This document shows positions 2,339 to 64,000 of a stretch of DNA of 64,000 nt, one piece after another. The stretch covers positions 1 through 64,000 of the forward strand of contig OW569380.1 of NCBI GenBank assembly GCA_937625935.1, written 5' to 3'. The notes under the pieces are model-generated. The model saw only the letters and a program-made list of their open reading frames with translations, had not been told where the DNA came from and did not search any database. The translations under genes and the position numbers were made by a program. Position 1 is the first letter of the stretch, and each line of letters opens with the position of its first letter. This DNA comes from Tetramitus jugosus. Its lineage: Eukaryota > Protista > Heterolobosea.

Positions 2339-2355
2339 AACCCAAACCCAAACCC
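2339..2355. repeat. Interstitial telomeric tract
   Basis: aacccaaacccaaaccc. Confidence 0.7.
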
Positions 2356-42408: not shown

Positions 42409-42455
42409 GTTGTCTTCAGAATCAATGAGTTTATCAATTTATACCAAGCGAGATG

Positions 42456-43679: not shown

Positions 43680-43810
43680 CACCACATCTGTCAAGCCACA
43701 AAACCTCGAAATTAAATCCAATTGAGAGAATTCCACCATGATATCCTCTGCACTTGGACTACGGTTGTCTTCAGAATCAATGAGTTTATCAATTTATACC
43801 AAGCGAGATG

Positions 43811-45034: not shown

Positions 45035-45165
45035 CACCACATCTGTCAAGCCACAAAACCTCGAAATTAAATCCAATTGAGAGAATTCCACCATGATATC
45101 CTCTGCACTTGGACTACGGTTGTCTTCAGAATCAATGAGTTTATCAATTTATACCAAGCGAGATG

Positions 45166-46623: not shown

Positions 46624-47165
46624 CCTTCTGTCTGTGAGCTAGCTATCGTTTGTTTTTGTCAGTGTGGTTTTGTGTCTGCGATGATGGTTGTGTGATGGTT
46701 TAAGTGCTGAGAGCGAAACTGAATGATAACGACAGGAAGAACACAACGTTCGAATCCCTCCAGATATGAAAGGAGATGACAAAATTATGGCCCGTCATGC
46801 CGAAGAGTCATTATGTTCAAATAGGAACAACAACCCAACTAATGGAGAGACCAATTTTTGAGGATTTTGGGAACAAAAACTTGTTGTTTGGCAATTTATC
46901 CAGAAATGAAACAAATTGCGGTCAACAATTGCATTGGAAGAGTCTAAACCCTACATAAGACACTGGTGGTGAAGTCGCGAATATGGTTTATTGAAGCAGT
47001 CGGACAACTACAGCAGCTTTGAGAGAGCAATTGTTCTGGTTCAACATGATGATGACATGGTGTGTCAAAAATCTGGAGATCAACAACCATAAAAGACGGA
47101 GTTATTCGCCTCCATTACTCTTTTGAGCATCATCCACGAGAAAAAAAAACGAATCAGAAGCTGAA

Positions 47166-48698
47166 ATGTCGCACTGCAAGACTGTCCTAATTGCCACAGT
47201 TGTGCTTTTGCTCGTGTTGACCACCTTGCTTTCACTGCCTAGTCTTTCTGAAGCTAAAAAACCAAGATCCAAGTCACAATCTCACCAGCATGCTCATTCC
47301 CACCAAGATCACAAGTCCAAGAGAAGCTCGTCCTCCAATTCAGATAGCCCATGTTCTTCTTCATTGGACATTGAGGATGATCCAGAGCTCGATGCTGCCG
47401 TTGAACGCGCAAGACAAAGATTCTTAGCAACGAGACCACATCCGTTTGATCGATTGACATCGACTCTGTTGGTGCCAAAATCGTCTTCGTCATTGTCTTC
47501 GACATCGTGGTCCAGAGGATCGTTTGATCAGAATCGTTTGGCTTATCCTGCTAGTTGTGTCAAGATGACGTACATGGTGAGTGCAGTGCAGTGGTGCCTC
47601 TCTCAAAAGCTCAAATTCAACTGTTTGGATCATCATGTGAGACCAATGATCATGGTGAGCTCTAATTTGGAGACTGGTGTCGTGGTGGACTTTGTGACTG
47701 GTGCTCCCAATTTGCCTCACTTGGACACTGCCAATGCCACTTTTTATCAATGGCTTGCAAAGCGTAACTATACTCAGGAATGGATGACCAAGAGACAATT
47801 GTTGGAGAGTCAAGTTGTTTTGCACAAGACTTATCCTACGAACAGTGGTGTTTTGTTGGGCGCTGAAGGATTAGCTAGAAACATGTTTGGCGGCAATTTG
47901 ATGAACACAAAGTGTACTGCTTCCTTGTTGGCCGAGATTGTGTCTGGAAAGCTGTTCCCAGAGGCACGTGAATACTTTATGGAACTCTTGTACCATCCAT
48001 TGGACTCCTATACTTGCTATGGACGTGGATTACCACCTGGTTCAATCATTTATACCAAGACTGGTAATGCGTATGATACGGTTGAAGAGATTGCCTATGT
48101 TTTGCTACCAAACGGCAAGCAATTCATTCTATCAACATTTACCAATGGTTATGAACCATCTGAGCCAAAGTTTGATACTCTCTCTTACTATATTCAATTG
48201 ATTATCGAAGAAGCAAAGTTAGACGAGGGATTGCCACCAATGCTCGAGTTTGATGTATCTTCCAGCAACTTCTTCTCCAGTGGTGATTGGTTGAATGGAC
48301 AAGCCAAGGACATGTACGGCTCCTCGTACAAGTACAATGTGCAAAGTGGACAACAACAGGCTGGTTGGAAGTTCCAAGTTCCAGAAGAAGGTCTCTATGA
48401 GATCTCCATCTGGAATCCAGAGTCATCTACTGCATCCACCAGTGTTCCTTTCACCATTGAGCATGCATCTGGTACTGATACATACAATATGAATCAGAGA
48501 GTGAACGGAGGCAGATGGTCCAAGTTGGACGATCTCTACTTCTTTGCTGGACAGACTTACTCTGTGACATTGGATCGACGCAACTCCCTTGCCAGTAACG
48601 ATGTGCCTTCTGTTTCTGTCAATGCGCTCAAGGTTGCCAAATGGCCAAACTGTGGTGCCATTCCAGGATCTCCATGCCTCTCCAGAGCTCGATTTTAA
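47166..48698 (+). CDS. Secreted serine beta-lactamase/PBP-fold hydrolase with C-terminal carbohydrate-binding-like (golvesin/CBM-type) domain
   Basis: Signal peptide; YPASCVK (SxxK), SSN, KTG; C-terminal AGWKFQVPEEGLYEI..W, NQRVNGGRW. Confidence 0.8.
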   Translation: MSHCKTVLIATVVLLLVLTTLLSLPSLSEAKKPRSKSQSHQHAHSHQDHKSKRSSSSNSDSPCSSSLDIEDDPELDAAVERARQRFLATRPHPFDRLTSTLLVPKSSSSLSSTSWSRGSFDQNRLAYPASCVKMTYMVSAVQWCLSQKLKFNCLDHHVRPMIMVSSNLETGVVVDFVTGAPNLPHLDTANATFYQWLAKRNYTQEWMTKRQLLESQVVLHKTYPTNSGVLLGAEGLARNMFGGNLMNTKCTASLLAEIVSGKLFPEAREYFMELLYHPLDSYTCYGRGLPPGSIIYTKTGNAYDTVEEIAYVLLPNGKQFILSTFTNGYEPSEPKFDTLSYYIQLIIEEAKLDEGLPPMLEFDVSSSNFFSSGDWLNGQAKDMYGSSYKYNVQSGQQQAGWKFQVPEEGLYEISIWNPESSTASTSVPFTIEHASGTDTYNMNQRVNGGRWSKLDDLYFFAGQTYSVTLDRRNSLASNDVPSVSVNALKVAKWPNCGAIPGSPCLSRARF

Positions 48699-48967
48699 GT
48701 GTATTACCTATATTATTACAAATTGCACATTCAAACAAACAAACACATGATGATACTCAGATACATGTCCTTTTAGATATGGTGGTGTCGCTCGAACGTT
48801 CAGTTGGACGCAAGATATCCCGCACTTTCGGGAAGGAAATCCCATTTCTCTCTTCTTATTTTATCAACAACACGACAAAACTCCCTCAGCCGTGTTGTCC
48901 AACAACAACAAACACACATATATCAAAACACAACAACAATAACAACAAAACACACCTATTATTCTAT

Positions 48968-50794
48968 ATGGTCAATAAATCAGGATTGAAACAATTTTCT
49001 CCTCTCATTGTCCTCTCAATCATTGAACTATTGTTTCTCATTGTTCTTCCCATTGTTTTCATTGTGACGACTTCTATTGGAAGCACACGGGACAAGACAA
49101 GTAACAATAGTGATATTCTAGTGTCAAGGACCAATCCATTCAGTGCCATATGGTGGAGCATTGTTACTCTCTGTTCTGCATGCATTCACTTGTTTGATGT
49201 GTGGTATGATGTTCCGTTGAGGAAATTGTTGGCCAAGGGTGATTCGAAATATGCCAGAAAATACTCTGTTTGGTGGTTGGTTGTGCGTGTCATGATCTCA
49301 TTGTTGGTTGGTTTTGTAATTGCACTTCCGACGTTGATTAGCTACTGTTTTGGAAGAGGAGTGAGAGAGTGGGTCGCTGGTGTTTGGGCCGGTGGATTAC
49401 TTGGCTTGTCGTTTTTGGTGATTGTTGGCTCCATTTTCAAGTTTCGAATTTTGAGACGATCGGGTCACATGGAAGACGTGTCCTATTTGGTCGATTTGGA
49501 TGATTTGAGTGATGAGGATGCCGATGAAGATTTGCTTGCGAGTAATAGTTATTATGATGAATTGGGTGGTTGGTATGAGAATAGAGGATCATCTCAAATG
49601 GGATTGACTGCACGTGTTCACAAGAGATCCATGATACCAAAGGTGACAACGTTTAGGGTGTGCAACTGTGTGATTCAATCAATCATGTTGCTGTTGGTCT
49701 TGTTGTTGTGCATTGGTACCATGTTGGCTACAGTTCAAGCCATTTGGATGTTTATTGAGGGTCAATCTGTGCACATGCCCGGTACGATTTATCGCATTCA
49801 CAATGGCAAACAGAGAATGCACATGTTGTGCAAGGGAGCGCCCAATGCTAAAAATGGAACGAATCCGTTGCCTACGGTGATTATTGAGAGTGGATTGGGA
49901 GTGGAGAGCCCTACAGTGTATTGGAACGACATTCAAAATCAATTAGCACTTTTGTTGATACGAGTTTGTGTCTATGATAGAGCTGGAGTTGGTTGGAGTG
50001 ATGCTGGTGCTTATCCAAGAGATTCGAACAGTATTGTGAACGATTTGAAGCAATTGTTGGACAAGGCAGGAGAAAAGGGACCATTTGTCTTGGTAGGTCA
50101 TAGCTTTGGAGGATATAACGTGCGAGTGTTCACTTCCCAGTATCCTGATCAAGTTTCTGGTTTGATGCTCGTTGATTCATCGCATGAAAATCAACAAGCA
50201 ATGATGTGGAAGGCGCAAAACATATCAGAGTCTGCTGGAAAGAAGGAGCAAGCAATGCAAGACATGGGAATCAATTTCATGAGAGTTTTTGCTCCGTTTG
50301 GATTCTATCGGTATGCAATACTCTCCATGAATCGTTTCATGCTCAATCCTTACAATCAAACGTTGTCAACAACTCAACGCAAAATCAAAGAATTCTCCAT
50401 GTTTGAGAACAAGTTTGTTTCCACTCTGTGGTCAGAAGCATCCAACTTCCCTACGAAGAGTGCATCTGAAGTAAGGCAATCAAGAGCATCAGGCTATGGT
50501 GATTTGCCGCTCGTTGTTCTCACGGCTGGTTATACGATGAACGGCACTTGTGCTGATAATCATATGCCACCAAAGTCTTCCATGTGCACAAATTTTGAAA
50601 AGTTCAAAACGGAGAATGCACAAATCACAATGGAGATGCAAGCAGATATGGCTTCCCTCAGTACGAACTCTGTTTGGGATATCATTTGGAATAGCTCTCA
50701 CAATATTGCCATTGATCAACCAGGCATTCTCGTGCAGCATATTGTCAATCTTGTACAAAAGGCTGCTAACTATCGGAGTTTGGCACAAAGGTAA
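48968..50794 (+). CDS. Membrane-anchored alpha/beta hydrolase
   Basis: Several N-terminal TM helices; VCVYDRAGVGWSD, LVGHSFGG, SSHNI; ATG at 48968 taken as likely start. Confidence 0.9.
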   Translation: MVNKSGLKQFSPLIVLSIIELLFLIVLPIVFIVTTSIGSTRDKTSNNSDILVSRTNPFSAIWWSIVTLCSACIHLFDVWYDVPLRKLLAKGDSKYARKYSVWWLVVRVMISLLVGFVIALPTLISYCFGRGVREWVAGVWAGGLLGLSFLVIVGSIFKFRILRRSGHMEDVSYLVDLDDLSDEDADEDLLASNSYYDELGGWYENRGSSQMGLTARVHKRSMIPKVTTFRVCNCVIQSIMLLLVLLLCIGTMLATVQAIWMFIEGQSVHMPGTIYRIHNGKQRMHMLCKGAPNAKNGTNPLPTVIIESGLGVESPTVYWNDIQNQLALLLIRVCVYDRAGVGWSDAGAYPRDSNSIVNDLKQLLDKAGEKGPFVLVGHSFGGYNVRVFTSQYPDQVSGLMLVDSSHENQQAMMWKAQNISESAGKKEQAMQDMGINFMRVFAPFGFYRYAILSMNRFMLNPYNQTLSTTQRKIKEFSMFENKFVSTLWSEASNFPTKSASEVRQSRASGYGDLPLVVLTAGYTMNGTCADNHMPPKSSMCTNFEKFKTENAQITMEMQADMASLSTNSVWDIIWNSSHNIAIDQPGILVQHIVNLVQKAANYRSLAQR

Positions 50795-50823
50795 ACATGT
50801 ATGCGATCATAGTTGGTTGAGCT

Positions 50824-52158
50824 TTATGATGATACCGAAAGATGAGAGCGATTTTTTGAACTGGCATTCAGCGATTGTTCTGGTGCCCGACTCTGCTTCT
50901 GCAATGAAGTCTTTGCTCCTGTTGATTTTGCTGTGACTCGTTTCATTTTGTAAATTTTTCCATATTCCTCATATATCACCTGCAAGATTCCCCATATTAC
51001 CTCCTCGTCTCCTGCCAAGATCTCCTTCACACTCCACAGATAAGTTGGGTCAATATTTTTCCTCTCTCGAAGTATGGATAGCACCCGATTCACATTATTG
51101 TAGGCACCGGCCGTTCTCGCTGGTTTTCGATCAATTCCCGGTATCGTTCTTCCTTCTAACTTTTCTATAATCTCTGCAAGTTTTGTTCCATTCTTTAGAG
51201 CTTCGATACATTCTTTGGCGATGGAGTTCGTGTCATTCGATGTCAAGTTCGATGTCTCGTACAGAGTAATGCCCAAAGATTCTATCCATTTGATAACTTT
51301 CTCATGTGTTGTGATTCTTTGAAGGAAGGTCATACTACGCAAATCATTAGGTTCCACTATGTGAACTCTTCTTAATTGAGGGGAAGTTTGTGGCGGTGCT
51401 TGTGACACTATGATCTTTGCTTCTGATTTTGGTTGTTTGAGAATACTCACATTTTCTGGTTTTAGTGATATATTGTGCACACTGAAGTTGATTGTGGTTG
51501 GTGTTTTTGGCACTTGCGTACTCATGTTAGTGGATGAGTTATGACGCGTGAGAGATTGCTCGTTGTTGTTAAACCTCCCTGTCCCGACTGTTTTGTTGTT
51601 GAACAAAAGTTGCCGAGTCATCGATGTTACTACACACTCTGGTTTGATTGTATTATCGTGTTTCAAATTCACATATTGCAATGGAGGGGAGTAGGTTGGT
51701 TGTCTTTTGAACAACACTTTCATATTTGACACATGATTGGTCACTGATGAAGTCAGTGAGGCAGCAGAATTGTGCAAGGAATTGTTCAAATGCTGGTAGG
51801 ACATGAATGAAGCACCATGAGTGGAGCTATTATTCAACTCCATTTTCTTTTGTGTCGTTTTCAAATCACTCTCATTCACCAAAGTAGACGAGTAGGGATC
51901 GGATGAAATGGGATTGGGTCTGTGATCATTCGGTCGAAGACAAAATCGAAGTAGGGGAGTATGTAAAGGATGCCTCACATTCGCTGCCTCGTGTAGTTGT
52001 GATTGGTACGAGAAAAGTTCAGAATCTCGTTGTTGTTTCAGTCTACTGGCAATCAAATGAGATATGTCAGTCTTGTGAACTACCTGAGAGGTAGAAGCGA
52101 ATGAGACGACATCAGGAGTTCTGGATTGCATGGTATGCGTTGAGTTAAAATGATACAT
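50824..52158 (-). CDS. Calponin-homology (CH) domain protein
   Basis: WIESLG...LKNGTKLAEIIEKLEG...NNVNRVLSIL...EILAGDEEVIWGIL. Confidence 0.75.
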   Translation of the reverse strand: MYHFNSTHTMQSRTPDVVSFASTSQVVHKTDISHLIASRLKQQRDSELFSYQSQLHEAANVRHPLHTPLLRFCLRPNDHRPNPISSDPYSSTLVNESDLKTTQKKMELNNSSTHGASFMSYQHLNNSLHNSAASLTSSVTNHVSNMKVLFKRQPTYSPPLQYVNLKHDNTIKPECVVTSMTRQLLFNNKTVGTGRFNNNEQSLTRHNSSTNMSTQVPKTPTTINFSVHNISLKPENVSILKQPKSEAKIIVSQAPPQTSPQLRRVHIVEPNDLRSMTFLQRITTHEKVIKWIESLGITLYETSNLTSNDTNSIAKECIEALKNGTKLAEIIEKLEGRTIPGIDRKPARTAGAYNNVNRVLSILRERKNIDPTYLWSVKEILAGDEEVIWGILQVIYEEYGKIYKMKRVTAKSTGAKTSLQKQSRAPEQSLNASSKNRSHLSVSS

Positions 52159-52332
52159 GTATTCAATGAATGATGTCTTCAAAGCAGCAATGCGGGTTTT
52201 GATAATTGTAGTGGAAAACGGACGGCGTAAGAATAGCGTACTCCGACAAACCAAGGGACAATGCCTGATTCCAGAATGAGATTCACGTTAAGGTTCATAG
52301 TAAAACTCATTGATGAACATTAGTCATCTAAT

Positions 52333-52719
52333 TTATTCAGCTTCCACCAGCTCCAATTCCGTGAAAAATCTCTGTATGGTTTTCTTGACACCATCGACAT
52401 ATTCGTCGAAACTTTCAAGGTTTTCTTTAAGTTCAGAGAGGAGATTAACTGAAACAAGACGAGCTTCATCTACGGCTCTCTCCAAATTTTCTTTACCTAA
52501 TTGTTGCAGAGCTCTGCGAGCAGTTTGTTTCCTTTTTGCTAGCGATCTTGCACAAAATGCATAGCGAATTATTGGGTCGCTAGATGCACCGTAGCTGTTT
52601 CTACCATTTCCTTTCAAGAATGATTTGAATACTCGCTCTGGAGTCGGTTCCTCTCCAGTTGTCCCGAACCGGCAGAGCAGAAATGGAGGTAACTCGATAT
52701 GGAATTTGCAATCGGGCAT
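52333..52719 (-). CDS. Family 'B' small helical protein, intact copy
   Basis: 128-aa ORF with DPIIRY..RSLAKRKQTARRALQQLG..NLERAVDEA, homologous to three degraded copies upstream. Confidence 0.75.
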   Translation of the reverse strand: MPDCKFHIELPPFLLCRFGTTGEEPTPERVFKSFLKGNGRNSYGASSDPIIRYAFCARSLAKRKQTARRALQQLGKENLERAVDEARLVSVNLLSELKENLESFDEYVDGVKKTIQRFFTELELVEAE

Positions 52720-52811
52720 CGAGCAACCCGATCGTAAAATGTGATTCGAGCAGATTGGAGGTCTACGACCCTATCGGTCCTCACGAACCGTTCGTGACAT
52801 AGCGTTAACAC

Positions 52812-53258
52812 TTATAATTTTCTCATGTTCTTGTTGATGTATTCTTCGATACGAGCGTTACCATCCTTACTCATCTTTCTATCGAAGTGTATTCCTGGTC
52901 CTAACTTTTCTGTAATTAACTTCATAAACATCTTATTATCGAATTCAAGTAAGGTATAATGTCTAATCTTAAGTAAAGCATGAACATGAAGACATTTCGT
53001 CTTAGGGCCTATCTCTAAAGCTGCTACAATATCACCAGTCTTGACATCAGGAGTATCAAAAACGTGGCCTTTTTCTCGTTCACTACTTTTAACAAGTACA
53101 TATTTTTCGATCATTTCGGGACTTAACATCTCCTTGATTGTATTCCAAAATAACTCCTTGTATTCTTGATAAGATTCTTCATACCCCGAAAATCTTTTGT
53201 TAGAATTGATTGTAAGGAAGAAGTTGCTTGGTCTTATCTGTCGTTTTTTATCATTCAT
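52812..53258 (-). CDS. Stand-alone HUH endonuclease (rolling-circle Rep nuclease domain)
   Basis: Motif I FFLTIN, motif II EIGPKTKCLHVHALL, motif III EEYINK; 148 aa from ATG 53258. Confidence 0.75.
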   Translation of the reverse strand: MNDKKRQIRPSNFFLTINSNKRFSGYEESYQEYKELFWNTIKEMLSPEMIEKYVLVKSSEREKGHVFDTPDVKTGDIVAALEIGPKTKCLHVHALLKIRHYTLLEFDNKMFMKLITEKLGPGIHFDRKMSKDGNARIEEYINKNMRKL

Positions 53259-53277
53259 TTTTATCACTGTAAGAAAA

Positions 53278-53655
53278 ATGCCAATCGAATATACCATGGA
53301 ATTCAACGATAACACTAACACAGAGAAAGCTGTAGATGAACAACCGAAAGTTGAAGAAATACCAGCTAAGGTTGAAGAAATACAACCGAAAACTGTAGAA
53401 ATACAACCGAAATTTGAAGAAATACAACCAGAGATTACTGAAGAAGCTGTTAAATTAGACTTTAATGCTATTGTCAAGGAGATAGAAGCTAAGAAAGAAC
53501 CAAAGAAAGAAGAGAAACCACCAGCACCTAAGTTTGTTGGTGGAATTTTAATCAGACCTCCTAAAGATACAGATGAACAACCAAAGATGAAAACATCTGA
53601 AATGATTGGTTATGGAGTTATAGCCACTTCGTTGTTCTCCTTGCTATTTCTGTAA
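53278..53655 (+). CDS. Small acidic protein with 7-aa (V/F)EEI(Q/P)xK repeats and C-terminal TM
   Basis: 21-bp repeats at ~53350-53430; hydrophobic C-terminus. Confidence 0.75.
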   Translation: MPIEYTMEFNDNTNTEKAVDEQPKVEEIPAKVEEIQPKTVEIQPKFEEIQPEITEEAVKLDFNAIVKEIEAKKEPKKEEKPPAPKFVGGILIRPPKDTDEQPKMKTSEMIGYGVIATSLFSLLFL

Positions 53656-53679
53656 AGTATTATTCATCTGACTATTAAA

Positions 53680-54783
53680 ATGTCAGATGAATACGACGCC
53701 ATGTTATCCTTCTTAAAGTTAGGAAAGATACCAGACGACTTCAGTAAAAATCAATTGTCTCGTTTTAGGAAGAAGTTAGCCAATGTTCAAGTAGACTCAT
53801 CTGATCGTTTGGTAAGGGATGAAAAGGTTATTGTTCAACCAACAGATAAGAATAAGATTCTTCATGATCTTTATCATAATACTTCAACTGGATACTGTGG
53901 TATTCAAAAGTTATACACAAGAACGAAGGAAAATTACGATGGAATAACAAGAGAAGATGTAGCAAACTATCTCAAGAGTGATTCGATCAATCAAAGAATG
54001 ACTAAACCTCCTAAGCATAGAGTTGTTAGACCGATTATTTCAAGTAAGAAGTTAGAACGAGTTCAAATTGATTTAGTTGATATGTCTACTCTTAGTTGGC
54101 ATAACAATAGACATAATTGGATTTTAACTGCAATTGATCATTTCAGTAAGTATGCTTGGGCTTTTCCAATCAAGAAGAAAAGTAAGGAAGGAGTTAGAGC
54201 TGCATTGGATCAACTTCCTATTGGTATTTCAGTTCTTCAATCAGACAATGGATCTGAATTCAATAATAACTTGGTTAAGGAATATTGTTCAAAGCGAAAC
54301 ATTAAGCATGTCATGAGTACACCTTATACTCCTCAAACCAATGGAGCAGTTGAAAAATTCAATGGAACTCTTAAGTCTATGTTGTTCAAGTATTTGGCTG
54401 ATAAAGGAGTCAAGAGATGGATCGATCAGTTACCTAATTTGATTGAGAATTACAACACAAGTTATCATCATACGATTAGAATGAGTCCAAAGAATGCTTA
54501 CGATAATAATGTCAATGTTAAACCTTTGATTGAAAAACAAGCTAAGAAGATGGTTCAACCTGATGCTTCTAGATTGAAACGAGGTGATTTAGTTCGTATT
54601 GTTCTGATCAAGGATCGTTACGAGAAGAAATATACAGCCAATTATTCTCAGGATATTTTCAAGATTAGTTCAGTGAGTAGAAATGCAAATGCTCAATATC
54701 GATTAGACGATCTTGAAGGAAAGCCTTGGGGTAGAGTTTACTATCGAAACGAGTTATTGCATGTAACGAAAACAGATTTGTAA
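53680..54783 (+). CDS. Retroviral-type (rve) integrase, Polinton/Maverick-like
   Basis: RVQIDLVDM, ILTAIDHFSKYAW, LQSDNGSEF, PQTNGAVEKFNGTLK (intact DDE), YNTSYHHTIRMSP, GDLVRI. Confidence 0.95.
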   Translation: MSDEYDAMLSFLKLGKIPDDFSKNQLSRFRKKLANVQVDSSDRLVRDEKVIVQPTDKNKILHDLYHNTSTGYCGIQKLYTRTKENYDGITREDVANYLKSDSINQRMTKPPKHRVVRPIISSKKLERVQIDLVDMSTLSWHNNRHNWILTAIDHFSKYAWAFPIKKKSKEGVRAALDQLPIGISVLQSDNGSEFNNNLVKEYCSKRNIKHVMSTPYTPQTNGAVEKFNGTLKSMLFKYLADKGVKRWIDQLPNLIENYNTSYHHTIRMSPKNAYDNNVNVKPLIEKQAKKMVQPDASRLKRGDLVRIVLIKDRYEKKYTANYSQDIFKISSVSRNANAQYRLDDLEGKPWGRVYYRNELLHVTKTDL

Positions 54784-54805
54784 TTATTTTTCTATAGTAA
54801 AACAA

Positions 54806-56047
54806 ATGTCAATCATAGGAAACAACGAAATCTTTTACTCACCTGAATTACAGGCCGCAGAGTATTATGACTCAAGATTAGAACGAATTGTCGGTGAGAA
54901 ACTTAGAATGATTCTGATTGCAGATCAGGCTCCGACTCCAAGTTTGAATGCTCAACAGATTTTCAGAATCAATAACAATCAAGGTAATAAGATGATTACT
55001 AAGCCAATTCTAACTAATTATGTTAGTCAAGTTACCGCAACTGGTACACCAACTACATTAGCTCTGGTTGATTACTTCGGAGTCTTTATTTACGATCGTA
55101 TTGAATTGTGGCAATCTGGTGTTCAAATCTCTCAAGTTACTGGACAACAAATGTACAATAACCTTGTTCAACATAATGATAGTGATGAACTTACAATCTT
55201 GAATGATCAAGTTGGTGGAGGTTTGACTGATGCTGAAAGAACAACCTTGGCTTTGACTGAACAGACTTTCTATCTTGATTTGTCTCAACATTTCTCTATC
55301 TTCTCTATTCCTATGGAATTGTTTTTACTTGATGGTCCTTTGGAAGTTAGAATTTACTATGCTCAAGGTCCAGCTACCAAGTATATCAGAAATGTTGCAG
55401 GTACCAATCCAACGTTCTCCTTCACTAAATCATCTGAGTTAATTGTGACTTACAATAATGTTGGTCTACCTTTGTATGAATCAACTGTTCAAAGAGCAAA
55501 GGAAGGAAAGGTTGTTAAGTTTGTTCACGATTATATCAATGTTCCATTGAGTATCACAAGTTCTGCTGTGAATCAAAACTTCAATATCTCTCAATTGGCT
55601 GATAATGATGTGATCCTAATTAATATCACTCAAAGATTGATGTCAGATTTGAACTCTGCTTCATCTCCGACTTATACAAACTTCCAGAAAATTCCTAAGT
55701 ATACCTTGAAGTCTCAAGGTAGATTCATTGCTGGTGCTGAGTTTGATTACTTGGATAGATACATTAGAAAGGTGTATATCAATAATCTTGGGTTCTTGGG
55801 TAGTGAAACATTAAGAAACTTGAATGTTTATCCAATCTGTTACGCTAATGATTTGGCTGAAACATTTGGTAATGATACTAACGATTACACTGGATCTAAG
55901 AATTTCAATGGAGTTACTGATGCTCAATTGATGTTGACATACGATACTGCACCTGCTGCATCCGAGATTCTTTGTAATATCGTTGTTGCAAAGAGATACG
56001 CTATCATTGATGGTAAGATCCGTCAGATTGTCAACACCGTTGTATAA
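54806..56047 (+). CDS. Putative double-jelly-roll major capsid protein
   Basis: 413 aa, beta-rich; YDRIELWQSGVQISQ, FYLDL..F..IPM..L..LEVRIY and C-terminal YPICYA...YTGSKNFNGVTDAQL mirror the conserved NCLDV/PLV MCP patterns (iel.iggq.id; lyiPl; Y.ysFal..psGs.Nfs.i). Confidence 0.78.
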   Translation: MSIIGNNEIFYSPELQAAEYYDSRLERIVGEKLRMILIADQAPTPSLNAQQIFRINNNQGNKMITKPILTNYVSQVTATGTPTTLALVDYFGVFIYDRIELWQSGVQISQVTGQQMYNNLVQHNDSDELTILNDQVGGGLTDAERTTLALTEQTFYLDLSQHFSIFSIPMELFLLDGPLEVRIYYAQGPATKYIRNVAGTNPTFSFTKSSELIVTYNNVGLPLYESTVQRAKEGKVVKFVHDYINVPLSITSSAVNQNFNISQLADNDVILINITQRLMSDLNSASSPTYTNFQKIPKYTLKSQGRFIAGAEFDYLDRYIRKVYINNLGFLGSETLRNLNVYPICYANDLAETFGNDTNDYTGSKNFNGVTDAQLMLTYDTAPAASEILCNIVVAKRYAIIDGKIRQIVNTVV

Positions 56048-56058
56048 ACACTTTTCAT

Positions 56059-56088
56059 AATTCATATCTCATCGATGAGATATGAATT
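56059..56088. terminator. Perfect 30-bp palindrome 3' of MCP
   Basis: AATTCATATCTCATCGATGAGATATGAATT. Confidence 0.7.
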
Positions 56089-56118
56089 CAAGTTAGATTT
56101 ATTCATTATACTAATAAA

Positions 56119-56487
56119 ATGTCTGGATATAATCTTCAAGTAATTAAACCGTACGACGCGCTGATTAAAGGTATTAGTCCTTCTTTGGCTAGGCCGTATG
56201 AAGATGCTATTAAAAATATACCTCAGAAAAAGTTTGGTCAAAGATTGATTGACTTTGTTAAAGGAATCCCTGAGAGATTGAATTTTGGAATCGATTATAG
56301 TATCGTTCAAACTGATAAACTCAGTAAGAGTGTTGGTTCGAATATTAGAAACATTCTAGGTGGTCAAGGTCTTGCTGGTGCTCTTAATGATGGAGCCAAG
56401 GGTATTGCAATTACAGGTGGACTTCTTACTGCCCCTATTGCCTTAGCTGCTGCTGCAATTGCCGCTGTTATCTTAATTAAACTATAA
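56119..56487 (+). CDS. Small Gly/Ala-rich protein with C-terminal TM (candidate virion membrane protein)
   Basis: 122 aa; GGLLTAPIALAAAAIAAVILIKL. Confidence 0.75.
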   Translation: MSGYNLQVIKPYDALIKGISPSLARPYEDAIKNIPQKKFGQRLIDFVKGIPERLNFGIDYSIVQTDKLSKSVGSNIRNILGGQGLAGALNDGAKGIAITGGLLTAPIALAAAAIAAVILIKL

Positions 56488-56498
56488 GTTATGTAGTA

Positions 56499-56521
56499 TA
56501 TCAGATGGAATCCATCTGATA
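56499..56521. terminator. Palindrome between convergent genes
   Basis: TATCAGATGGA-A-TCCATCTGATA. Confidence 0.7.
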
Positions 56522-56526
56522 CACAT

Positions 56527-57456
56527 TTATTCTTCTTCGTCAACGACTGTTTCTTCTTCGTCAATGATCGTTTCTTCGTCGCTGTCATAGTTTGGAATCC
56601 CCCAAGAAAACTCATCTTCATCTTCAACTTCAACATGTTGAGTTATTTCAGGTTGTTTCCTAGATAAAATATCATCATTGAAAGCGTCATGTAACATATC
56701 TTCAGTTAGAGGCTTCAATAGATTTTGTTTAAAATATTCAACGATATCAGTTATATATATATGTCTATCTAGGTACATATTATACCCTCTACTTGATATA
56801 TATTTTCTACCTAAATTATTCATCAATCTATCATATACAGTGGTTGGATTAATAATGAATTTTTGTGAGTTGTAAGTTGTTGTGTACATTCCATTTTTCA
56901 ATGTAAAAAGAAGAGATAATTTTGGTTTCTTCTTATATAAACCAATCATTACAAACTCTCGAGGATTCTTGAAGAATGGGTAAGCTGTTTCCATAGGGGA
57001 ATCTTCTATTTTATCCATAGGGCGCGATAGATGAGAAATATCCCTCTCATCAAAGTTAACATGTCTAGGATATTGTTTGATATACTTATGAAGATCAAGG
57101 AAAATATGAACGTATGTTCTATTTAATGTATCGTTGAGTATATCGTTGGCATCTAGATTTTCATCGAAAAATCCACTTGTATAGTTCCATTTACTGAGTT
57201 TTCTCTTAAGGAAATAATAAACTATTTCCATTGGGATATAGTATGTTAGATCTTTTGAATGTTCGTGTTCATATCTCAGATCTTTTAGCTCAAACAGTAA
57301 TTTTGATCCATCTAATATTCCTATTACTTCTAAATATAAACTTCTATACGTAAGTCCATCGAAACGTATTGTTTGTAGACATTGATGATCTGTTCCTACT
57401 AATATTTCAGGGAATGACCAAGTTCTGTCTTCGATATATAATCTTTCGTACTTCAT
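56527..57456 (-). CDS. Hypothetical protein with acidic tail
   Basis: 309-aa ORF, TAATAAATG start context. Confidence 0.8.
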   Translation of the reverse strand: MKYERLYIEDRTWSFPEILVGTDHQCLQTIRFDGLTYRSLYLEVIGILDGSKLLFELKDLRYEHEHSKDLTYYIPMEIVYYFLKRKLSKWNYTSGFFDENLDANDILNDTLNRTYVHIFLDLHKYIKQYPRHVNFDERDISHLSRPMDKIEDSPMETAYPFFKNPREFVMIGLYKKKPKLSLLFTLKNGMYTTTYNSQKFIINPTTVYDRLMNNLGRKYISSRGYNMYLDRHIYITDIVEYFKQNLLKPLTEDMLHDAFNDDILSRKQPEITQHVEVEDEDEFSWGIPNYDSDEETIIDEEETVVDEEE

Positions 57457-57463
57457 TTATTAC

Positions 57464-57487
57464 TTTACAGATAATTTTATCTGTAAA
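57464..57487. terminator. Palindrome 3' of the 57499-57735 ORF
   Basis: TTTACAGATAA-TT-TTATCTGTAAA. Confidence 0.65.
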
Positions 57488-57498
57488 ATGTATCTATT

Positions 57499-57735
57499 TT
57501 ATCCAATTAAGTTGTTCAACAAAATACCTATACATGCAGACATGAATCCAACATATAAAGTTTCTTTCATTTTAGGTGATATCATAATTGGTTTTTGTTC
57601 AACATTTTGAACTTCAGTGATATATTCATTCGTTGTTTTAATTACAACCGTATACGGTTCTTCGTCTGTAAAGTGAGCTTTAGTATTTTCAATTATTTCG
57701 TTTATTCTTGATGCTTCTGGTGTTGATTCTGTCAT
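57499..57735 (-). CDS. Small protein with C-terminal TM
   Basis: 78 aa; LYVGFMSACIGILLNNLIG. Confidence 0.7.
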   Translation of the reverse strand: MTESTPEASRINEIIENTKAHFTDEEPYTVVIKTTNEYITEVQNVEQKPIMISPKMKETLYVGFMSACIGILLNNLIG

Positions 57736-57781
57736 ATTTTATAATCTTTTCATATTTTTATTCGTCTTTGTATCGATTCAA

Positions 57782-57942
57782 ATGAAATAACTAAAAGGTG
57801 AGAAGGGTGTGAGGAACGTTTTTAAAAGTTTTCTATATTCATTTCTTTCAACTCAAAATACTTTATATCTCCACTTCTCACCCTTCTCACCTTTTTAGTT
57901 ATTTTAATATATTATATAGATAGACTAAAGGATAAATAGAGA
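57782..57942 (+). repeat. Origin-like inverted repeat, copy L (internally palindromic, GGTGAGAAG iterons)
   Basis: Reverse complement of 63538-63699 apart from a ~20-nt diverged centre. Confidence 0.9.
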
Positions 57943-57989
57943 TTGAAAAAAATAATCAAACGATATTAATGATAACTAGATGTTTTTGG

Positions 57990-58014
57990 ATCAATCTCAT
58001 TTAATGAGATTGAT
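57990..58014. terminator. Palindrome 3' of the helicase gene
   Basis: ATCAATCTCATT-T-AATGAGATTGAT. Confidence 0.7.
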
Positions 58015-58022
58015 TCTATCGA

Positions 58023-60080
58023 TTAATCAGATGGATCATGTTCAGATGATACAACCCATGAAACTTCTTTAGTATAAGTAGATCGATTGGCAGCATACAC
58101 AAAATCTCTTGATTCCATACTTGATTTAAATTGTTGTGAGTTAATTTTATAACCGCTAATATCATTTAAAGTTTTATATTCTTTAAAACCTGCAAATTTG
58201 AGAACCAATTTATATTTCACGTTATTACCTATGTTATTTCTATTAAAGGTTGAAAATTGAAGTTGACTAATGGATTCTGCAATCCAAACATCAATAGGAT
58301 CAGCTGACTTACCCTTCATCAACTCAAGAAGTTTTGTTTTAGGATAATCTTGAATAACGAAGGAACTGATATCACGTTTCATGAAAAATGTAAACAACGA
58401 ATTCATTACATTATCATCCTCAAGCATAGCAAGAATTTTCGTAGAATGATCGTAATCCTCCTTGTATTTAGGAACACATTTAAAACAAGCGAATCTTCTA
58501 TCGTTGTCATCTATTTTGAAGTATTCCCATTTATTAGTGAAGAATATAGCAAATAAAAAATTATCAACAGTTGCGTATTCTTCGTATAACCTACGTATCT
58601 CAATCTTATCTTCACTGATAATGTTCTTTAATTTTTCTGCATTTTCTCCAAAACCTTGAACTTCGTCTCCAATTATGCCAAGTATGTTTTGTAATGATCC
58701 ATTCTTTTCACCCGTGATCTGATTTATATGATTTATCATTCTAATAACAAATTCACCAAATAATTTAGATATAATTTTTGCCAAAATTCCTTTACCAGTA
58801 CCAGTTGTAGATGATAAAAGCATCGCAACGTCAGTTTTGAGATGAGGATATTGAACCTTCTTGGCAATAAAATTAAGGAACCATTCAAGATAATTATCAT
58901 TACATTCAACTAACATATGGAAATGATCCATGAACAAACCAATCGTAGGGTCACATGAATATCTTGAAGTTTGTTTTTCAGCGTTACCTTTTTCTGTAAC
59001 AATACATTCATAATTTGGTAAGACTTTATATGGGAATCCGTAGAATGTATTAATTCTTCTAGTGTCCAACCAACTCAATGGATAAGGAATAAATACTTCT
59101 TCGAGGTAAACATGTGTCTTTAGCAACAAGTCATGTATCTCTTTTTCAGTATAAGTGATATATCTTGGTACAGTTTCACCTGCAATCAATCTGTTCTTGA
59201 GACTAGATGTAGTTTCCCATTTTCTCTGTTCAGCTGCATACTCGTTATCATTTAATTTTCTAGAAAATCCAGACGATCTATGGTATCCATTACTTGCTAA
59301 TTTTTCAACAACATAACGAGCGATTTTACCTTCAACCTTCGTATGTTTGACATAAAACCAATGGTTATTACCAATACTACGTATACCAGCAGTTGCCTCA
59401 AGGGCACACATCATTGATTCGAAATCATCATAATCTCCCTTGGCATCATGATAGGTGAAAGTATCCTTAGGATTCAAGAATCTTAATCTTGCAGTATGTC
59501 TAGGATCATCAAATTCTTCATCATCTTGAATCTCTTCAAGAGTACCTACTGAATCTTCAATGTTAGGAGGTTGAATAATAGTATCGACAAAATCAGGGGC
59601 AGCATTATCGATATTCGGAATTTGACCAACTGAAGCTTCCCATTCACAATCAATGTATGCAACTCTTTCACCAGTTATGTATGATCCACAACCAGGTAAA
59701 AGAAATTCTTCACCTTTACCTTCAATATTAATAGTGACTGTTTGATAGTCAAGAGGATTAACAATACTTTGAAATACTGCAGTATTGTCCATACCAATAC
59801 CATATTTCTTTCTAAACTGTTCTTCGGTCATCTCGAATACAGAGACAAACTTATCAATATCACTGTCTTCCAATGTCATGGTGTGATCACACCATGAAGG
59901 TGACGCATCTAAAGGACATGAAACGATTAAAAATTTATCGTCACAAGAGAAATAATCTCCATTAACATTCAAACCAAGTTTCTTAAAATATTCACCAACT
60001 GCTTTTACTTCATTCTGAGTTGGAACATCAAACGGATCAGTCATTACCTTCTGTAATCTTTTTGTACTTACTCTACTCAT
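58023..60080 (-). CDS. D5-like / SF3-type helicase (DUF5906 / NrS-1-like C-terminal ATPase)
   Basis: Walker A TTGTGKG, Walker B IIGDE, motif C IFFTN, arginine finger DRRF. Confidence 0.9.
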   Translation of the reverse strand: MSRVSTKRLQKVMTDPFDVPTQNEVKAVGEYFKKLGLNVNGDYFSCDDKFLIVSCPLDASPSWCDHTMTLEDSDIDKFVSVFEMTEEQFRKKYGIGMDNTAVFQSIVNPLDYQTVTINIEGKGEEFLLPGCGSYITGERVAYIDCEWEASVGQIPNIDNAAPDFVDTIIQPPNIEDSVGTLEEIQDDEEFDDPRHTARLRFLNPKDTFTYHDAKGDYDDFESMMCALEATAGIRSIGNNHWFYVKHTKVEGKIARYVVEKLASNGYHRSSGFSRKLNDNEYAAEQRKWETTSSLKNRLIAGETVPRYITYTEKEIHDLLLKTHVYLEEVFIPYPLSWLDTRRINTFYGFPYKVLPNYECIVTEKGNAEKQTSRYSCDPTIGLFMDHFHMLVECNDNYLEWFLNFIAKKVQYPHLKTDVAMLLSSTTGTGKGILAKIISKLFGEFVIRMINHINQITGEKNGSLQNILGIIGDEVQGFGENAEKLKNIISEDKIEIRRLYEEYATVDNFLFAIFFTNKWEYFKIDDNDRRFACFKCVPKYKEDYDHSTKILAMLEDDNVMNSLFTFFMKRDISSFVIQDYPKTKLLELMKGKSADPIDVWIAESISQLQFSTFNRNNIGNNVKYKLVLKFAGFKEYKTLNDISGYKINSQQFKSSMESRDFVYAANRSTYTKEVSWVVSSEHDPSD

Positions 60081-60229
60081 CTTTCTTTCTTTCTTTTTAA
60101 TTCTAGAGATATTTTTTATTTCTAGAATTTTTTAAAAAACTTTCAATTCGTTTTAAAAATCATATTTTTAAAAATAAATAAAAAAATTCAATAAAAATAT
60201 ATTTACTATAAAAAATTCATTAATCTTTT

Positions 60230-60260
60230 TCATATCACTTCCATTGTATAAGTGATATGA
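60230..60260. terminator. Hairpin 3' of the 60271-60648 ORF
   Basis: TCATATCACTT-(9 nt)-AAGTGATATGA. Confidence 0.65.
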
Positions 60261-60270
60261 TACTGTATAT

Positions 60271-60648
60271 TCATAAGGTGAATGTAACATTATTTGCATT
60301 GAAGTATTCCATGATACGTTGTCCTGGTTTTCTGTTTGTGAAATATTTTACATGTTCTTTAACCCATTCAATTTCTACAGGCTTAGCTGTTCCATTCATA
60401 ATCTTTGTACATTGATAGTTAAATTTACCGTATAACGACCTCATATCAGTTACCTTAGCCATTGTCTTTTCGTGTTCTAACTTTCGTTGTTTTTCTTCCT
60501 CATGTTTTCTCTTCAATTCTTCATGGAAGAGTCTATTCTTTTCATGGAAATTCTTATTCAGTTGAACTTTACGATCAGCTATTTCTTGTTTAATTGAAGT
60601 AAACAACTCAGATAATTCTTCGATACTCATTTCTTTGATATTTATCAT
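60271..60648 (-). CDS. Hypothetical coiled-coil protein
   Basis: 125-aa ORF. Confidence 0.75.
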   Translation of the reverse strand: MINIKEMSIEELSELFTSIKQEIADRKVQLNKNFHEKNRLFHEELKRKHEEEKQRKLEHEKTMAKVTDMRSLYGKFNYQCTKIMNGTAKPVEIEWVKEHVKYFTNRKPGQRIMEYFNANNVTFTL

Positions 60649-60677
60649 TTTTTAAATGATAAATATATATTTATTTT

Positions 60678-62036
60678 TTATTTTTTTATTAATAATCGTT
60701 CATCTAAAATTGGTAGTATGAATTTTGTACTTGTACATATACATAATTTTTGATAATCCATTATCTGTTGCATACGTGGTTCTTTTTTTACTTCCCATCT
60801 TTTAGCTGAAACTTCAACTGAAGCTAAAGTACCTAGATCTAGAGAACCTAACATAAAAGACTGTCCGTGATTTCTGAAACAACGTAAATGAACGTTTTTC
60901 TTATCACCTGAAATGGTTAAATAAGCATTTTCATTATCATGTGTTCTATTACAAACTAAACAATAACATGATTTTTTACGTTTCAACTTGATAGTTGTAC
61001 CTAAAGATTCTTCAACATTAAATGAATCTTCATGATATGGAGCGATTCTATGAAACATGTTAATTGCTCCTTCAATTTCACTCTCTGATACTTCTCCTCC
61101 AATAAATTTAGTCTTTTTCATTTTATCGATAGTTATAGGACATACTAACAGTTTAGATGTATTTAAAATCAATCCAACTAAAGAGTATCTAAATCTATTT
61201 AGATGGCTCAACTTTATATTATTGATATCTTCACTATCATTATACACGATTTTTTTACCATTGTATGTCCAATACTTATCGAACTTCATTCTATTTGTAC
61301 CAGCTTTTCTATTATACGGGAGTCTAAATTGTTGTAATGAACTATACACACTAGGATCTACAAACTTTTTCACATTATCAGGAAGATGACTAACCACATG
61401 ATCATAAAAAACTTTTGCTTCCTCATGATCTGGATGATAAACTCCATCAACGATGATATGAACACTATATTTCTTTCCTTTCTCTATCATACCAGTTGAT
61501 TCATAAACGATGATGTTCTTTACAGGGTCTATTTCAACTCCCCAAAGTTTACAACATTCGATAATTAAGCTACACATGTAATCTATAAAATAGTCAAACC
61601 ATTCATCTGTTACCCATGAATCCTCAGTTTCAATATCAAATCTAGGTTTCTGTGGTCCTTCTGTAATAACTTCAAAGAAGTTTAAATGTTCTAATGAAGC
61701 TCTACCGCCAGTATGATTGAGCTTTAAAAACGAATACTTATATTCAGTTGGAGGAATATTAGTTGTTCTAAACTCGAATTTTTTTACATCTTCATCTTTG
61801 ATTTCAGTGATTGTATTATAACCCCCAGCTTGGTGAATCATTTTTTCGAGATCATTGATATTCATCATTGAATATAATCTTCGATTGTTTTCGTCACAGT
61901 GACATATGATAATATCCCCATGAGCCTTCACATTATTCGATAATAATGTTGGAGTTCCATTTTTTATCGAATCTTGACTATCTTTGAGATAATAGTATGC
62001 TTCATGTACAACTGTATCCTTGTAAGTAAACTTCAT
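60678..62036 (-). CDS. Archaeo-eukaryotic primase (PrimPol / NCLDV-herpes clade) with C-terminal Zn finger
   Basis: FFEVI..QKPRFDIE (motif I), KYSVHII (II), VDPSVYSSLQQFRL..NRK (III), CLVCNRTHDNEN...CFR. Confidence 0.9.
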   Translation of the reverse strand: MKFTYKDTVVHEAYYYLKDSQDSIKNGTPTLLSNNVKAHGDIIICHCDENNRRLYSMMNINDLEKMIHQAGGYNTITEIKDEDVKKFEFRTTNIPPTEYKYSFLKLNHTGGRASLEHLNFFEVITEGPQKPRFDIETEDSWVTDEWFDYFIDYMCSLIIECCKLWGVEIDPVKNIIVYESTGMIEKGKKYSVHIIVDGVYHPDHEEAKVFYDHVVSHLPDNVKKFVDPSVYSSLQQFRLPYNRKAGTNRMKFDKYWTYNGKKIVYNDSEDINNIKLSHLNRFRYSLVGLILNTSKLLVCPITIDKMKKTKFIGGEVSESEIEGAINMFHRIAPYHEDSFNVEESLGTTIKLKRKKSCYCLVCNRTHDNENAYLTISGDKKNVHLRCFRNHGQSFMLGSLDLGTLASVEVSAKRWEVKKEPRMQQIMDYQKLCICTSTKFILPILDERLLIKK

Positions 62037-62097
62037 TTTTATTATTTGTTAGATTTTTTTAAATTTAGTTTTTTAAAAATTCTTCATTTATTTTTAA

Positions 62098-62127
62098 AAT
62101 CATACAATTTATTTCAATTGTATGATT
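62098..62127. terminator. Hairpin 3' of the 62159-62734 ORF
   Basis: AATCATACAATT-(6 nt)-AATTGTATGATT. Confidence 0.65.
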
Positions 62128-62158
62128 CATTGTTACATTGTTCATTCATAGTGTGAAG

Positions 62159-62734
62159 TTAAAATTCATCAGTAATTGTTGCAATGGTTAAGTATAAAAG
62201 ATCATGAAAGAATCTAAATCGAGTACCTTCAATTTCAATTGTACTATCATCCATATGCATACATGTTACATTGATTAATTCCTTACAAAAGATTCTAAAA
62301 GTCATTGGAATATCCTTCGTATAAACTGTTGTTTCAATTGAACCTATCCTCAAGAATTCTTTCATAATTATTAGAACAACATCATCGTATAGATTTCCAT
62401 CGTATGTAGGCATAATTTCAACTGTTACGAAACGAATCAATGATGTTACAAATAAGATGTCATCCCATTCAAGTTTAGTACCAAACACCATTGATAATTG
62501 ATTGAAAACTCCTTGAAGATCTTTGAAAAACATTTTAGTCAATTCAATGTTTTCATCTGAATAAATCATTTCAAAAGGGTCTGGATCTTTACCTAAGAAT
62601 CTTAAAGTACATAGACGTACATGTAATTCAAATATCTTTAAATCTTTCTTGATATCATCAGATGGATCTAATGCAAGTTTATAAGTTTCATAGATGATAT
62701 CAAGCTCTCTGTTGTAGCGTTCTAAGTCGTTCAT
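62159..62734 (-). CDS. Hypothetical helical protein (paralog of 62967-63512)
   Basis: 191-aa ORF; ELDIIYETYKLAL, SLIRFVTVEIMPTY. Confidence 0.8.
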   Translation of the reverse strand: MNDLERYNRELDIIYETYKLALDPSDDIKKDLKIFELHVRLCTLRFLGKDPDPFEMIYSDENIELTKMFFKDLQGVFNQLSMVFGTKLEWDDILFVTSLIRFVTVEIMPTYDGNLYDDVVLIIMKEFLRIGSIETTVYTKDIPMTFRIFCKELINVTCMHMDDSTIEIEGTRFRFFHDLLYLTIATITDEF

Positions 62735-62749
62735 TTATTACTATGCGTA

Positions 62750-62776
62750 TAATATGTATCCATTGGATACATATTA
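62750..62776. terminator. Palindrome 3' of the 62780-62980 ORF
   Basis: TAATATGTATCCA-T-TGGATACATATTA. Confidence 0.7.
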
Positions 62777-62779
62777 GTT

Positions 62780-62980
62780 TTAACAATCAATTACTCCATC
62801 CAGGAAATCGATAAGTCCTTCAAGGTTCTTACGTTCATCTTCTAACTCTTTAAGTTTCTCTTGAACATCATTGATTAATGCTTTTGTAACTTTCATTTCA
62901 TCTTCTTTACATTGAAGTTCTAATTGAAGTTCAATTATAAAGAATTGAAGGTCTTTAATCTCTGAATCAATGTCTATCAT
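62780..62980 (-). CDS. Small coiled-coil protein
   Basis: 66 aa with heptad pattern; overlaps the stop of the upstream ORF. Confidence 0.65.
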   Translation of the reverse strand: MIDIDSEIKDLQFFIIELQLELQCKEDEMKVTKALINDVQEKLKELEDERKNLEGLIDFLDGVIDC

Positions 62981-63512
62981 TGCGTATTGCTTTTAATAGT
63001 ACAAACAATAACTTATGTTGTTCAGGATTTATATCAATCGGTCTTCCATCACGATATTGATCAGATAATTCAATTAATGTTTTAACTAAAACTTTTTCAA
63101 CTACTCTTGTTTCAGTCGATACACTTTTCAATGTATTGATTACAACACGTTCAAACTCTTCATTGTTATAGACGTAGCTGAATGTTGGTAAAACTTCTCG
63201 AGTTAAATAGTTGATTAAACTTCGTCCAATCTTTATATCTTTCCATGTTCCGTAGTCATCGTCTAACCAATCAATGTTGTCTTCTCTTAATGCTTCTCTG
63301 AAGATGTCTCTATATACATCTGAATGAAAACTATAAGATTTCAATGAATGTTCGAACATTGAATAAGCGCTTTCTGATCCTGTTGCTTGAAGTAGATCGT
63401 ATCTAAAGAATACTTTGTCTTCAATGTTTGGTTCAATTAGTATCGCCTTATAGATTCCATGGATAACATCTAGTCCAGCTTCATATTTCAAGATATCCTT
63501 GTATTCGTCCAT
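62967..63512 (-). CDS. Hypothetical helical protein (paralog of 62159-62734)
   Basis: 181-aa ORF; GLDVIHGIYKAIL, SLINYLTREVLPTF. Confidence 0.8.
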   Translation of the reverse strand: MDEYKDILKYEAGLDVIHGIYKAILIEPNIEDKVFFRYDLLQATGSESAYSMFEHSLKSYSFHSDVYRDIFREALREDNIDWLDDDYGTWKDIKIGRSLINYLTREVLPTFSYVYNNEEFERVVINTLKSVSTETRVVEKVLVKTLIELSDQYRDGRPIDINPEQHKLLFVLLKAIRNDRH

Positions 63513-63537
63513 TTATTCATTCAGTCGATTATTTCAT

Positions 63538-63699
63538 TCTCTATTTATCCTTTAGTCTATCTATATAATATATTAAAATAACTAAAAAGGTGAGAAGGGT
63601 GAGAAGTGGAGATATAAAAGTATTATGAAATTTAAAAATGAATATAGAAAACTTTTAAAAACGTTCCTCACACCCTTCTCACCTTTTTAGATGTTTCAT
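63538..63699 (-). repeat. Origin-like inverted repeat, copy R
   Basis: Reverse complement of 57782-57942. Confidence 0.9.
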
Positions 63700-64000
63700 A
63701 TATATTGAGGATAATACGAATGAATAGAACGAAACTAAAAATAATACAAAACGATACCAAAGGATACAAGCAACTCTAATAATGAGTATAAAACTCGATA
63801 TAGTAAAGCTGAGCATAGTCCCTATATAGGGACTGGTATATTAATGCTTAACTCGAAATAGTAATCGATATCAAGTTTATTGAAGCATAGCTTCAATAAA
63901 TATAGAAATAATAATAAGTATGAGAAATGGATATACTTTATAGCACAGCGTTACTATCAATCCCAGTCGTAGTTTATTATACTGGATCATTAATGATCCA

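Follow-up and report, generated by a model that had tools for sequence, protein, structure and literature searches.

Inverted palindromic repeats around a primase and helicase module in an integrated virus of Tetramitus jugosus as candidate twin replication origins

The Polinton-like viruses of the groups Zoravirus (VC102) and VC218, which resemble the nucleocytoplasmic large DNA viruses (NCLDV), form the comparison group for the element described here (10.64898/2026.06.19.733378), and for Polinton-like viruses the inverted repeats have been proposed, without test, as both the replication origin and the substrate of integration (PMC11296320). Two other systems offer points of comparison, as described in the parts of the sources covered here: in the Staphylococcus aureus pathogenicity islands (SaPI) an AT-rich centre is surrounded by opposed iterons, which lie immediately downstream of the gene for the helicase and are bound by a C-terminal winged helix (PMC9371898), whilst HSV-1 (herpes simplex virus 1) has a pair of palindromic origins situated in inverted repeats, and its genome isomerises (PMC8539067). 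The locus considered here lies in the heterolobosean Tetramitus jugosus (assembly GCA_937625935.1, contig OW569380.1, positions 1 to 64,000; this whole 64,000-bp stretch is referred to as the window). It is an integrated small DNA virus, and internal to it are two inverted copies of a palindromic repeat which enclose genes for a superfamily 3 (SF3) helicase and a primase of the archaeo-eukaryotic primase (AEP) type. The leading reading, to which we would give about an even chance, is that each internal repeat serves as a replication origin for the virus's own helicase, so that the element would carry twin internal origins.

The two copies (57782-57951 on the forward strand against 63529-63699 on the reverse; 93% identity over 172 nt, E 7e-68) are slightly longer than reported in a preliminary description of this DNA, which had correctly recognised them as near-identical and inverted. 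Their alignment contains 12 differences in 173 columns. The outer 51 bp and the inner 81 bp form identical blocks, and between them a 20-bp patch contains all seven of the core differences. As had been claimed, both copies are imperfect palindromes, with single-strand DNA folds at z -3.8 and -4.0 and none of 200 shuffles equally stable. The sequence GGTGAGAAG, described earlier as iterated in both arms, has two exact units in the inner arm and a single exact one in the outer arm, whose other unit is degenerate; in this detail the sequence differs from the earlier description. A 17-mer, AAAAGGTGAGAAGGGTG, has exactly four sites in the 64 kb, all within the two repeats, and no further site was found outside them in the window at up to three mismatches. 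Each copy therefore presents two identical 17-bp boxes, one per arm, facing inward over an AT-rich centre of 57 bp (79% AT). The AT-rich tract noted in the preliminary description adjoins the inner arm in each copy, and the tracts at 57893 and 63558 are the second and third least stable 30-mers within the 11.3 kb of the element that lie in the window. About 60 bp separate the arms, and the two copies differ in their centres. The window contains no third copy, and an Rfam search returned solely microRNA hairpin models, far below their thresholds.

Six minus-strand open reading frames (ORFs) lie between the repeats, the helicase and the primase among them and no recognised capsid gene, in agreement with what had been described. 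The stop codon of the helicase gene is followed after 71 bp by the left copy, and the right copy lies 3.4 kb upstream of that gene. Residues 575-685 of the helicase, for which an Atlas match to DUF3874/Pox_D5 clusters is a lead only, possibly form a winged helix. The 452-aa ORF is an AEP-type primase as judged by its motifs, which are common to a relative (P0004), and by weak matches, including one to Herpes_UL52 (E 0.005); nine relatives at 25-31% identity were found in viral contigs, five of them named GVMAG and one with a weak match to AEP_C962R. As the left end of the element is at 52660, the repeats are situated about 5 kb inside it and are not its ends.

Were the repeats twin internal origins, rings of the helicase would load on the facing boxes through the C-terminal winged helix and melt the AT-rich DNA, the AEP would prime at the opened repeat, and a host or helper-virus polymerase would extend the primed strand; such a polymerase is invoked because none is encoded in the 11.3 kb of the element within the window. 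The likely HUH endonuclease, a second enzyme of the element, would have a different site of action, plausibly the small hairpins in the terminal repeat that adjoins its own gene. Since the copies are inverted and contain identical blocks of 81 and 51 bp, ordinary recombination could flip the 5.6-kb module they enclose, and would do so as a by-product, in the manner of the herpesvirus unique short (US) segment between its oriS-bearing repeats. The repeats of HSV-1 are kilobases long and one of them is terminal. The confinement of the box to the repeats argues against its being a general promoter of the 13 ORFs of the element.

Several observations weigh against this interpretation. Each side has a single exact long box, and the repeat is present in two copies, as opposed to at least two short iterons per side at the single origin of SaPI, and the AT content of the centre is exceeded in four other spacers of the element (80-97%). 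The inner end of the right copy lies 16 bp upstream of the start codon of the first module gene, so a promoter role would fit too. The identity between the copies runs past the boxes into the AT stretches, and binding alone is thus insufficient to explain it: a recent duplication or conversion is needed. The Atlas scores behind the winged-helix assignment (0.92-0.94) stem from fewer than 170 shared features. Searches of viral contigs with the helicase, with the capsid protein and with a gapped palindrome (0 matches), together with a scan of one metagenome, found no relative with the replication module, the metagenome yielding a 4.8-kb contig with capsid-side genes only. Finally, in one of the sequencing runs compared below (X3) the module contigs are listed at depths of 4158-4790 against 2213-3963 for the capsid side, which is noisy and out of line with the other two runs.

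It is also conceivable, if decidedly unlikely, that two replication systems operate side by side, with HUH nicking at the hairpins of the terminal repeat serving the whole genome, and SF3 and AEP firing from the twin inverted origins, flipping the 5.6-kb module into herpesvirus-like isomers and copying out a free 5.9-kb replicon. If true, this would explain directly how replication modules come to be swapped so often among small DNA viruses of eukaryotes.

Public contigs from three runs (X1-X3; two samples, one study) were compared over 46001-60100; X1 and X2 represent one sample, and as the contigs possibly derive from the window's own source they are not independent of it. They follow a single path from the capsid side through a repeat, the module and a repeat to the right flank; the right repeat and the sequence beyond it are represented just by the distal end of the module contig and by a loose end. 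At the contig joins 15 of 83 loose ends were listed, and among these the right flank is the sole loose end at the repeat. In X1 the depth was 98.4 for the capsid-side contig, 85.9 for the 5655-bp module contig and 50-60 for six host contigs, and in X2 it was 53.5, 49.3 and 23-32, respectively; the ratio of module to capsid side is thus 0.87 and 0.92. Contig depth does not equal copy number, and the figure of about three near-identical copies of the element per diploid set is an estimate from depth. The 31-base word of the contigs is shorter than both identical blocks, and hence the orientation of the module cannot be read from them.

The explanation that most directly competes with twin origins, although we consider it unlikely, is that a replication module, with the repeats as its ends, was captured by a capsid and integrase element, or is still mobile or copied out alone. 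The bracket does enclose helicase and primase with no recognised capsid gene, and in several Polisuviricotina replicase-bracketing repeats separate from the TIRs (terminal inverted repeats) have been read as signs of mobility (10.64898/2026.10.13.758929). The AEP relatives lie, at all nine loci, in contigs of giant-virus type where no other gene of the element is nearby, an HUH gene that lies outside the bracket could provide a second system of initiation, and the X3 module contigs are somewhat deeper. However, HUH and SF3 proteins normally work as a pair (PMC11253617), and redundancy between the two therefore need not be assumed. The outer edges have neither a flanking direct repeat of 5-10 bp nor a target-site duplication of 5 bp or more, in agreement with the preliminary description, the outer edge is ragged, and the similarity of the flanks beyond it is at chance level (p 0.35). 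The G+C fraction is 0.300 left of the bracket, 0.302 inside and 0.292 to the right, and the best split falls near 56650, about 1.1 kb before the left repeat (gain in log-likelihood 18.4, compared with 10.2 at the repeat), leaving two low-GC genes on the same strand as the module outside it. Codon usage was noisy, with these two ORFs and the HUH ORF like the module and the helicase like the capsid side, and was not used as support. No integrase, recombinase or polymerase was recognised inside the bracket, and neither the contig depth of X1 and X2 (one sample) nor the loose ends listed give any sign of a free or separately inserted module or of a further flank to the repeat. Free ends of molecules would not be visible in contigs. 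The earlier suggestion of a transpoviron-like replicon with the repeats as its termini is weakened by these results and by the terminal repeat at 52660-52799, which, like the HUH-like gene, that description had not mentioned.

A role as promoter or enhancer of two runs of minus-strand genes, with no part in replication, appears quite unlikely. It would account for the closeness of the right copy to the first module gene and for a left copy that starts 46 bp before the ATG of the 78-aa ORF, for the TATATA in both AT tracts, and for the fact that all eight minus-strand genes of 56527-63512 are downstream of a repeat. Yet opposite ends of the repeat would serve the two genes directly downstream; before the identical inner end of the left copy there are just the 3' end of the helicase gene and a hairpin (57988-58016); and TATATA occurs 12 times across the element. 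That the repeats are instead sites at which a dedicated recombinase inverts the module, as a switch or an amplification device, is very improbable. The copies are inverted, and their long identical blocks flank the divergent patch (P about 1e-5 for its share of the core differences, with boundaries picked after looking), a pattern which conversion or crossing-over could yield. One replacement event after a recent duplication also accounts for the patch, though, and after a flip the first gene would still have the identical 81 bp upstream of it, so that little would be switched. The core sites of site-specific inversion systems have a short identical spacer, whereas here the arms are widely spaced and the centres differ, and none of the 14 ORFs scanned from 52333 on is a tyrosine or serine recombinase; the inversion sites put forward in the preliminary description are therefore not upheld. 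Least probable is that a dispersed miniature inverted-repeat transposable element of the host was inserted twice, or that the assembly is at fault. Each copy is indeed a short non-coding palindrome, but besides the lack of other copies in the window and of a target-site duplication, the depth of the collapsed repeat (141.7, against 138-158 expected) matches two copies per element, both centre variants are present in the public contigs, and the 5655-bp module contig ends in the repeat on both sides. On the depth of the repeat and the loose ends listed, the dispersed host element, which had been named as the finding that would overturn the earlier proposals, was rejected.

The features of the element are collected in Table 1. 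Its left end is marked in the public contigs by loose ends at 52659, 52660 and 52799, among those listed, with depth roughly doubled between them. Two other flanks join before 52660, and one loose end there continues host sequence, in agreement, by eye, with two paralogous host frames at that position, so that this contig end looks like an empty site. We infer from the loose ends a second copy of 52660-52799, which is present once in the window and would be a terminal inverted repeat. It starts with TGTCCCGAAC and ends with a near-complement of TGTCCCGAAC, and a hairpin at 52781-52797, adjoining the stop of the HUH gene, is a candidate site of nicking or resolution. Within the 300 bp to the right of the right repeat (63700-64000) no ORF of at least 60 aa starts, there is a hairpin at 63876-63900, and the low GC is kept; with a G+C fraction of 0.29 there, the element likely runs past the end of the window.

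Table 1. Coordinates of the repeats and genes of the integrated element within the window
Feature	Position	Strand	Basis or details
Left terminal repeat of the element, 140 bp	52660..52799	+	Loose ends, approximately doubled depth; begins TGT, small hairpins
Likely HUH (rolling-circle Rep-type) endonuclease, 148 aa from ATG at 53258	52812..53258	-	Motifs FFLTIN, LHVHALL, EEYINK
rve (retroviral-type) integrase, open frame of 367 aa	53680..54783	+	Pfam rve E 7e-12
NCLDV-like double jelly-roll major capsid protein, 413 aa	54806..56047	+	Profile, model, Foldseek
Two ORFs outside the left repeat, 309 aa and 78 aa	56527..57735	-	Same strand and same low GC as module
Left internal repeat copy, candidate origin	57782..57951	+	Box 57793-57809, AT-rich centre 57815-57871, opposed box 57879-57895, AT tract to ~57925
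SF3 helicase, 685 aa	58023..60080	-	Pfam DUF5906 E 7e-15; PDB 6k9e E 3e-7; Walker A GTGKG at residue 427
ORF, 125 aa	60271..60648	-	No family match above cut-off
Stand-alone AEP-type primase, 452 aa	60678..62036	-	Motifs FDIE, SVHI, DPSVY; C-terminal CLVC..H..C zinc-binding region
ORF, 191 aa	62159..62734	-	No family match
ORF, 66 aa	62780..62980	-	No family match
ORF, 181 aa, first module gene	62967..63512	-	No family match
Right internal repeat copy	63529..63699	-	Boxes 63585-63601 and 63671-63687

The 148-aa ORF is likely an HUH endonuclease, as its three motifs occur in order and its first Atlas match (0.96) belongs to a cluster with REP_ORF2-G2P on 41% of members. The profile evidence is weak: against the rudivirus Rep profile it is the best of the 13 ORFs of the element (E 0.0095; 5 of 1000 shuffles as high), the hhalign probability is just 1.3%, no sequence match was found in Pfam or PDB, and BLAST against phages and the SIRV1 Rep was not significant. 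The 413-aa ORF is, on profile and model evidence, an NCLDV-like double jelly-roll capsid protein. It has 93 homologues; a 75-sequence profile matches the major capsid protein (MCP) of EhV-201 (E 1.4e-18) and the capsid protein of PBCV-1, and the model (pLDDT 95, against 30 for a single-sequence fold) gives a Foldseek TM score of 0.73, with about 0.7 against the EhV-201 and PBCV-1 capsid proteins. Within the window, the 11.3 kb of the element contain no recognised packaging ATPase (A32), minor capsid protein or Mriya48. A capsid relative with 28% identity lies on L011 (1176-4448), where an upstream gene of 227 aa may, by eye, encode a minor capsid protein, and where small genes with hydrophobic C-termini lie downstream of the capsid gene, as around that of the element. 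A 20-base pattern derived from the box matched 12 stretches, which were rejected as chance; the 10 contexts printed are collagen-like coding repeats and none of 11 such loci encodes a relative of an element protein.

The element contains 11 short hairpins with stems of at least 11 bp (52660-64000), nine of them centred between genes, in spacers that make up 13.5% of its length; four such hairpins occur in 50 kb of host DNA. A hairpin polyadenylation signal is common to Sputnik and the mimiviruses (PMC11172284), and by analogy the intergenic hairpins may point to transcription of the giant-virus type.

The virus appears to be inserted into a member of a repeated gene family, the function of whose product is not assigned (52333-52659, with others at 39916-40333, 43294-43669 and 44649-45024). 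The window starts in a telomere-like (CCCAAA)n array and its GC content is about 41% up to about 52.7 kb, then 29-35%. The host part also holds a unit of about 1.75 kb in three tandem copies that have diverged (22596-27151), a second, frameshifted rve integrase gene with host-like GC (40780-42000) followed by a 1355-bp tandem duplication (42402-45307), and a 510-aa ORF (47166-48698) with a hydrophobic N-terminus, a Beta-lactamase2-like domain (E 1.8e-7) and a Golvesin C-terminal domain (E 3e-26), here in a eukaryote.

The layout of a replicase bracketed by repeats is already known from a 2026 preprint (10.64898/2026.10.13.758929). The literature searched contained no case of twin origin-like palindromes in an integrated virus with HUH and integrase genes, although the figures and supplements of two 2026 preprints, which lay outside the search, may show the same layout; nor did it contain an experimentally mapped origin of a Polinton-like virus. 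The repeats thus offer a concrete candidate origin for this virus group, and as the site is short, a candidate initiator is at hand and the integrated copies are near-identical, the question of the origin is open to experiment. More broadly, the repeats which bracket replicases in these viruses may be duplicated origins rather than transposon-like ends, which bears on how replication modules are swapped.

Compared by gene content, the element fits the Zoravirus and VC218 groups, with which it shares an NCLDV-like double jelly-roll MCP, an rve integrase, a likely HUH endonuclease, probable terminal repeats and a variable replication module. Those genomes have terminal repeats and span 20-30 kb, and here a left repeat of 140 bp and 11.3 kb of element lie within the window; in the parts of the source covered no internal twin palindromes are described, and the packaging ATPase, minor capsid protein and Mriya48 of those groups are the genes not recognised here (10.64898/2026.06.19.733378). 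Mriyaviricetes likewise combine an HUH endonuclease and a helicase with an NCLDV-like capsid and, as in the part within the window, no polymerase. However, they have VLTF2 and VLTF3, genomes of 35-45 kb and an AEP that is fused to the helicase and mostly inactive, whereas the AEP of this element is a separate protein in which the motifs are present (PMC11253617), and because they lack integrases whilst this element has an rve integrase with an open frame, they can be ruled out. Transpovirons resemble the module in their size of about 6-7 kb, their few genes including a helicase (SF3 here) and the inverted repeats at their edges; they are free linear episomes that accompany giant viruses, whereas here the module is part of a larger TIR-bounded virus and a free form is not indicated (PMC11788076). 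In the wider sense of a 2026 preprint, as far as it is covered here, transpovirons have pPolB and a DDE transposase inside the repeats, families which none of the six bracketed ORFs matches.

In Polisuviricotina, too, repeats apart from the TIRs enclose replication genes away from the capsid genes, but in genomes with two replicase classes and with mobility as the interpretation, whereas here there is the anatomy of an origin, AEP and helicase are separate genes, and the bracket coincides with neither a GC step nor a target-site duplication (10.64898/2026.10.13.758929). The likeness to SaPI lies in opposed repeats around an AT-rich centre with the SF3 helicase gene directly upstream and a primase gene upstream of the helicase; SaPI are bacterial satellites with 6-12 short iterons and one origin, to which binding was shown (PMC9371898). 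With HSV-1 the element shares two palindromic origin-like sites in inverted repeats, around US in the former, and a segment that could be flipped by recombination (PMC8539067), although flipping has been shown in HSV-1 and the initiator there is the SF2 helicase UL9 (PMC12543377). As for the proposal that one inverted repeat of a Polinton-like virus acts as both origin and integration substrate (PMC11296320), in this element the origin-like repeats and the integration ends appear to be separate sequences.

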